10,264 nt of DNA from the NCBI RefSeq assembly GCF_003334315.1, contig NZ_QOWR01000089.1; one strand, given 5' to 3'. The position numbers and the translations under genes were made by a program. The notes beneath the pieces were generated by a model. That model was not told the origin of the DNA, did not search any database, and saw nothing but the letters and a program-made list of their open reading frames with translations. Source of the DNA: Escherichia coli. GTDB lineage: Bacteria > Pseudomonadota > Gammaproteobacteria > Enterobacterales > Enterobacteriaceae. This document shows, in pieces, positions 9,753 to 9,874 of this stretch. Position 1 is the first letter of the stretch; each line of letters starts with the position of its first letter.

Positions 9753-9874
9753 ACAACATCTGGTGCAAATCCATGAGTCGAACTCGACATTCATCTTAGC
9801 TCGATTATTATTCCTTCGTACAGTCGATGTAAACAATACAGAAAGAGGATTATTAAGAACCAGTTTACTCAGTG
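9753..9874 (-). pseudogene. Possible 3' remnant of an IS1-truncated gene (yqeK expected here by synteny)
   Basis: On the minus strand an open frame runs from the IS1 boundary (9874) for 39 codons ([40 protein letters not shown]) to a stop at 9753-9755, ~24 nt upstream of the yqeL RBS. No upstream start exists because IS1 abuts it. Identity unverified. Confidence 0.25.

Follow-up and report, generated by a model that had tools for sequence, protein, structure and literature searches.

What is the short open reading frame that lies between the small gene yqeL and a copy of the insertion sequence IS1 in a 10,264 nucleotide stretch of Escherichia coli DNA (contig NZ_QOWR01000089.1; the whole stretch is here termed the window), and what event produced it? 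An earlier note on this DNA suggested that the frame is the 3′ end of a gene, yqeK being expected by synteny, whose 5′ part was removed by IS1. The findings described here argue that the segment at 9750–9874 is a dead 3′ fragment of yqeK, probably formed when IS1 transposed into codon 101, such that the IRR end of the element abuts the fragment. We assign this reading a probability of about 97%. Whether the 5′ part of the gene was deleted or only split off is a separate question.

Identity of the remnant

The 125 bases of the remnant (Table 1) are all identical to the 3′ end of E. coli K-12 yqeK (125/125), and in translation YqeK residues 102–141 are matched at 40 of 40 positions (BLASTP E = 2e-28). 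A lack of similarity to the YqeK C-terminus, which the earlier note named as the outcome that would count against its proposal, did not occur. The number of codons is 40 and not the 39 originally given; the span of 9753–9874 assigned to the frame is essentially right and represents the coding part without the stop codon. Pairwise alignment with the K-12 locus, a comparison that the earlier note called for, shows identity through 9874 and unrelated sequence after it.

Over the larger stretch 9560–9874 the identity is 100% both with K-12 MG1655 and with many further E. coli chromosomes, and 3609 of the 5426 complete genomes of the species contain a match to it. K-12 annotation of this stretch consists of the end of yqeJ, a 26-aa CDS (yqeL) and yqeK, and with an offset of +6559 to window coordinates its yqeK stop falls at 9750. 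The gene order yqeJ, yqeL, yqeK is as in K-12, with the remnant on the minus strand, directly upstream of yqeL and convergent with yqeJ. The assignment to yqeK by synteny is thus borne out. The minus-strand yqeK frame is uninterrupted from the IS1 boundary down to its TGA, which is situated just upstream of the yqeL ribosome-binding site, as had been proposed; this site is an AGGAG at ~9726–9730, and yqeL is 35 bases downstream of the yqeK stop. By itself, an open frame of 40 codons would be weak evidence, in that ~15% of random 40-codon stretches are open by our own estimate (uniform codon usage); it is the nucleotide and residue identity that appears decisive.

The region between the two IS1 copies of the window is 99.94% identical to that of E. 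coli ST12468 over 383–8620 and 99.76% identical over 8613–9874. Because of this near-identity, the source is considered an ordinary IS1-rich E. coli lineage.

Full-length YqeK shows nothing significant in Pfam and has no NCBIfam HMM family. YqeL also has no NCBIfam HMM family. The YqeK of Bacillus subtilis, which we take to be an HD-domain protein unrelated to E. coli YqeK, shares only the name.

Table 1. Positions of features in the window, and breakpoints of IS1 junctions near yqeK in other E. coli genomes (L001, a K-12 stretch in which yqeK is at 3191–3616)
Feature	Position	Coordinates	Strand	Remarks
Left IS1 copy	1–390	window	+	390 bases; IRR end at base 390
ygeA 5′ remnant	391–451	window	−	first 20 codons (MKTIGLLGGMSWESTIPYYR), cut by left IS1
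yqeJ	9119–9601	window	+	160 aa, intact; convergent with yqeL and yqeK
yqeL	9634–9714	window	−	26-codon small ORF (MKDVDQIFDALDCHILREYLILLFYD), intact; identical to K-12 CDS WP_000655820.1 (26 aa)
3′-terminal yqeK remnant	9750–9874	window	−	100% K-12 identity; BLASTP, alignment, translations
yqeK stop codon TGA	9750–9752	window	−	
40 whole yqeK codons	9753–9872	window	−	YqeK residues 102–141
2 leftover bases of yqeK	9873–9874	window	−	from interrupted codon 101
Right IS1 copy	9875–10264	window	−	390 bases from IRR end; 94.6–98% identity to annotated IS1 family transposase elements
Junction, E17	3356	L001		simple insertion, 9-bp duplication, inside yqeK
Junction, PSS-16	3372	L001		deletion; far side is late ETT2 genes
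Junction, ET791	3413	L001		simple insertion, 9-bp duplication, inside yqeK
Junction, G1/2	3418	L001		deletion; far side is truncated PAS-domain gene adjoining ygeW
Junction, CAVP888	3514	L001		simple insertion, 9-bp duplication, inside yqeK
Junction, SW07096	3538	L001		far side is class 1 integron
Junction, JMF1	3592	L001		ETT2 replaced; far side is GH15 gene and glyU
Junction, eco-241	3748	L001		intergenic, just upstream of yqeK; simple insertion, 9-bp duplication
Junction, AL.H8	3783	L001		intergenic, just upstream of yqeK; simple insertion, 9-bp duplication
Junction, MIN9	3849	L001		deletion to glyU

The IS1 junction

IS1 matches start at 9875 in every comparison and the K-12 match stops at 9874; host DNA gives way to IS1 precisely at the outermost base of its inverted repeat. 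The repeat reads GGTAATGACTCC... (plus strand GGTAATGACTCCAACTTATTGATAGTG...) and represents the insB-distal IRR end. A join at the exact terminus is the signature that a real transposition junction leaves, and not that of a chimeric assembly join. The earlier note placed the start of the open frame precisely at this boundary. The boundary does mark the exact start of yqeK homology, but the frame itself stays open for 20 codons further inside IS1, to a TGA at 9933–9935.

The transposase of the right IS1 is encoded on the minus strand, in the same direction as yqeK, and its insB stop codon at 9890–9892 is 15 bases inside the element. Over all 390 visible bases this copy shows 94.6% identity to IS1A and IS1B copies, i.e. 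it is ~5% diverged, and 96.4–97.9% identity to those that ST12468 and ET791 carry under the plain label ‘IS1 family’, the overall range for the latter being about 96–98.5%. Only these 390 bases of the element are in the window, and what follows this IS1 lies outside it.

At the other end of the window, the left IS1 has cut ygeA, which encodes an amino acid racemase. The ygeA remnant mirrors that of yqeK: it is the 5′ end of the gene that is kept, and its peptide consists of MKTIGLLGGMSWESTIPYYR followed by W and a stop, both supplied by IS1. A 53-aa ORF across this left junction is not on record as a product. The two IS1 copies are mutually inverted, with both IRR ends pointing inward, and they differ at 4 of 390 positions (~99% identical). 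Each end of the window lies exactly 390 bases inside an IS1 copy; this suggests that the contig came from short reads and was broken at the repeat. From the ygeA start through to the yqeK end, the 9,484 bases between the copies run collinear with K-12; they carry part of ygeA, araE, kduD, kduI, yqeF, yqeG, yqeH, yqeI, yqeJ, yqeL and part of yqeK, and the eight large genes are all intact.

Coding status

An intact yqeK has a start codon and residues 1–101. In the window the homology stops at 9874, and the first 100 codons together with the first base of codon 101 are absent, with IS1 in their place. None of the 20 open codons inside IS1 is an ATG, GTG or TTG. Within the remnant the only in-frame starts are a TTG at residue 114 and an ATG at residue 127, and no in-frame start codon has a ribosome-binding site; the ORF listing of the window contains no ORF of at least 30 aa that ends at 9750.

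An InsB–YqeK fusion protein was also considered and was rejected: none is expected, because the insB stop is in a different frame from that of the remnant. As there is neither a usable start codon nor a fusion to the IS1 transposase frame, we infer that the remnant is a non-coding pseudogene fragment that would be untranslated and without a protein function. Its only possible residual role might be as the upstream region of yqeL, which would now be parted by IS1 from any promoter upstream of yqeK. The proper annotation of 9750–9874 is therefore not a gene, but a yqeK pseudogene fragment with the N-terminus missing, generated by IS1. The NCBI pipeline labels equivalent fragments that lie beside IS1 elsewhere as ‘protein YqeK, incomplete, missing N-terminus’.

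IS1 junctions in the yqeK tract of other genomes

Complete E. coli genomes were surveyed for an IS1 IRR end near the 3′ part of yqeK, and ten independent events were found (Table 1). On the same coordinates the window breaks at 3315. Five of the ten events are simple insertions, each with a 9-bp duplication, and the other five are deletions or rearrangements. In addition, TUM9757 has a further IS1 with a 75-base yqeK remnant, apparently also the product of a simple split. All comparison genomes have IS1 in the orientation seen in the window. This is a query artefact, in that only IRR ends on that strand could be retrieved; a biological bias in orientation was considered and rejected, because the query design selected for that orientation. 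Among 3601 yqeK-bearing genomes, 23 do not have 80% of yqeK in one piece, and in 20 yqeK is matched at two places in the record.

The AT-rich tract of ~535 bp at L001 positions 3315–3849, which consists of yqeK and the yqeK–ygeF spacer, is a recurrent IS1 target with at least 11 distinct breakpoints in other genomes (loci L004–L014). One of the five junctions with ETT2 deletion or replacement represents replacement by a class 1 integron. Four other loci (L017, L019, L021 and L022) have IS1 at further points: in the yqeI/yqeJ region, beside yqeG where ETT2 is missing, and in the ygeF–ygeG interval. Two of these, L019 and L022, contain a second transposase gene (DDE_Tnp_1 domain) besides IS1, and the ETT2-less loci among the four have a YecR-domain gene after IS1.

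IS1 prefers AT-rich targets. The G+C content of yqeK is 0.33, compared with 0.44 for the segment between the IS1 copies (window 391–9874), and this low value fits the target preference and may account for the recurrent hits. The landing of IS1 in codon 101 of yqeK, a gene of 141 codons at the left edge of the ETT2 island, would thus be attributable to an AT-rich target (33% G+C), and the event would have left the IRR end bordering the 3′ fragment of the gene. The AT-rich left edge of ETT2 appears as a repeated IS1 target across E. coli, to which the window adds one breakpoint. About half of the IS1 events there go together with the loss or replacement of adjoining ETT2 DNA, which fits the known mutational attrition of ETT2.

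The junction of the window was also sought in other collections. A 35-base pattern that spans it gave zero matches in species-representative genome contigs and in metagenome contigs, and the junction in one piece is in none of the 5426 complete E. coli genomes and in none of the PLSDB plasmids. Neither the left nor the right junction of the window is found in the 24 loci that were fetched. The KduI allele of the window is widespread (13176 blocks), and the window junctions are in none of 10 places among the matches listed. Among the papers searched, none names yqeK together with IS1. The yqeK/IS1 breakpoint at 9874/9875 has thus not been seen before in the collections searched; the kind of remnant is already known.

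Fate of the yqeK 5′ part

The transposition of IS1 into yqeK leaves two principal possibilities for the missing 301 bases, and roughly equal weight is given to them because the survey divides five to five. The first is that the 5′ part was deleted, perhaps with part or the whole of the ETT2 island beyond it, either by an IS1-mediated adjacent deletion or by recombination between IS1 copies. Unrelated DNA without a target duplication would then be present on the far side of the right IS1. The comparable junctions in PSS-16, MIN9, SW07096, G1/2 and JMF1 are of this deletion or rearrangement type, and the source genome is rich in IS1, with a second copy truncating ygeA 9.5 kb away. IS activity is known to produce deletions next to the element (PMC11708052), and this counts in favour of a loss. 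Nevertheless, the other half of the comparable junctions are simple insertions, and the window carries no direct evidence of a deletion. We give the deletion a little under an even chance.

The second possibility is a simple insertion, which for IS1 entails a direct target duplication of 9 bp (range 8–11 bp) on either side of the element. Here yqeK would be only split, with its 5′ 301 bases intact beyond the 768-bp IS1 and with the 9-bp sequence TACTCAGTG duplicated ahead of them; the far side of the element should then read TACTCAGTG, then AATCAATAGAGG... / AATCAATAGAGGAAAGG..., which is the rest (the 5′ part) of the gene. Precedents are E17, ET791 and CAVP888, with insertions inside yqeK, and AL.H8 and eco-241, with insertions just upstream of it, and in each of these the insertion is simple with a 9-bp duplication. 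The apparent split in TUM9757 and the 20 of 3601 genomes with yqeK matched at two places are also in keeping with an insertion of this type. Direct evidence for a split is likewise absent from the window itself, and the probability of this outcome is judged to be not quite one half.

It is also conceivable that the 9.5-kb segment was inverted by homologous recombination between the inverted IS1 copies, or was moved as a composite transposon, in which case one would expect the remainder of ygeA, or else a foreign site, on the outer flank of the right IS1. The inverted copies are ~99% identical over 390 bases and their geometry permits an inversion, but the inner segment is K-12-collinear end to end, the junction is at no plasmid or other location searched, and nothing in the data calls for such a rearrangement; it is considered quite unlikely. 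A frame that is open by chance, or a junction created by chimeric assembly at a repeat, is scarcely credible. Open frames of 40 codons do arise at random not infrequently, and the window looks like a short-read contig with IS1 at both ends; but chance is excluded by the 125/125 identity in a syntenic position, and a random chimeric join would not coincide exactly with the last base of the inverted repeat of IS1.

yqeL and neighbouring open reading frames

Upstream of yqeL its frame remains open as far as an ATG at 9774 (9634–9774, minus strand), and the resulting 46-aa ORF overlaps the remnant at its end. Some gene callers give this 46-aa form instead of the 26-aa yqeL (loci L021 and L024). 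On the opposite strand, a 44-aa antisense ORF (MYQQHLVQ...LLSG; 9745–9879, plus) overlaps the remnant and takes its TAA stop from the IS1 inverted repeat. It is absent from the record of called genes, and most likely arose by chance.

A sigma-70-like sequence, TTTACA-18-AATAAT, is present at 9833–9804 on the minus strand, within the yqeK remnant and ~90 bases upstream of yqeL; it is found in K-12 too. The number of promoter-like sites in 9500–10264 is 3, which is not above the shuffled expectation of 1.8, and an Rfam search of 9400–10264 gave nothing. IS1 is able to form fusion promoters at some sites (PMC9330008, Table 1). A fusion promoter across the IS1/yqeK junction was considered as well, but the promoter scan gave none that spans it, and nothing suggests one here.

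Perhaps yqeL is expressed without yqeK, either by transposase read-through from IS1, which has the same direction, or from the retained site at 9833–9804. Alternatively, the inverted IS1 pair might make the 9.5-kb araE–yqeL segment, which includes the ETT2 regulator genes yqeH and yqeI, invertible or mobilisable. Such consequences are regarded as very improbable.

Comparison with known systems

The reference IS1 is 768 bp in length and has insA and insB with a programmed frameshift. The right copy in the window, of which 390 bases are visible, has the same terminal repeat (GGTAATGACTCCAACTTATTGATAGTG) and an insB stop 15 bases from the terminus, and it is nearer to the ‘IS1 family’ copies than to IS1A or IS1B.

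Composite transposons such as Tn9 or those that are Tn1681-like have two IS1 copies that flank a passenger, and the window has this arrangement. However, a unit of this type is recognised by its having moved, as shown by a second site or by a target duplication outside the pair, and the inner segment here is collinear with K-12 and has no second site in the collections searched. By its layout the inverted IS1 pair may be said to resemble a composite transposon or an invertible segment; nothing shows movement.

The K-12 yqeK gene (b2849; WP_000350612.1, 141 aa) is an ETT2-flanking gene that shares its last 125 bases, including the stop codon, with the window. It is placed and oriented with respect to yqeJ and yqeL just as in the window, where IS1 has replaced the 5′ part.

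The closest parallels are the RefSeq IS1-truncated yqeK pseudogenes of PSS-16, ET791, SW07096, G1/2, CAVP888, E17 and TUM9757. They involve the same gene, the same element family, the same IS1 orientation (as selected by the query) and the same label, and differ in the length of the remnant, which is 75, 165, 186, 225, 228, 324 or 339 bases as compared with 125 in the window. The yqeK remnant is thus a case of routine, well-understood IS-generated gene decay, of a kind already annotated in RefSeq genomes.
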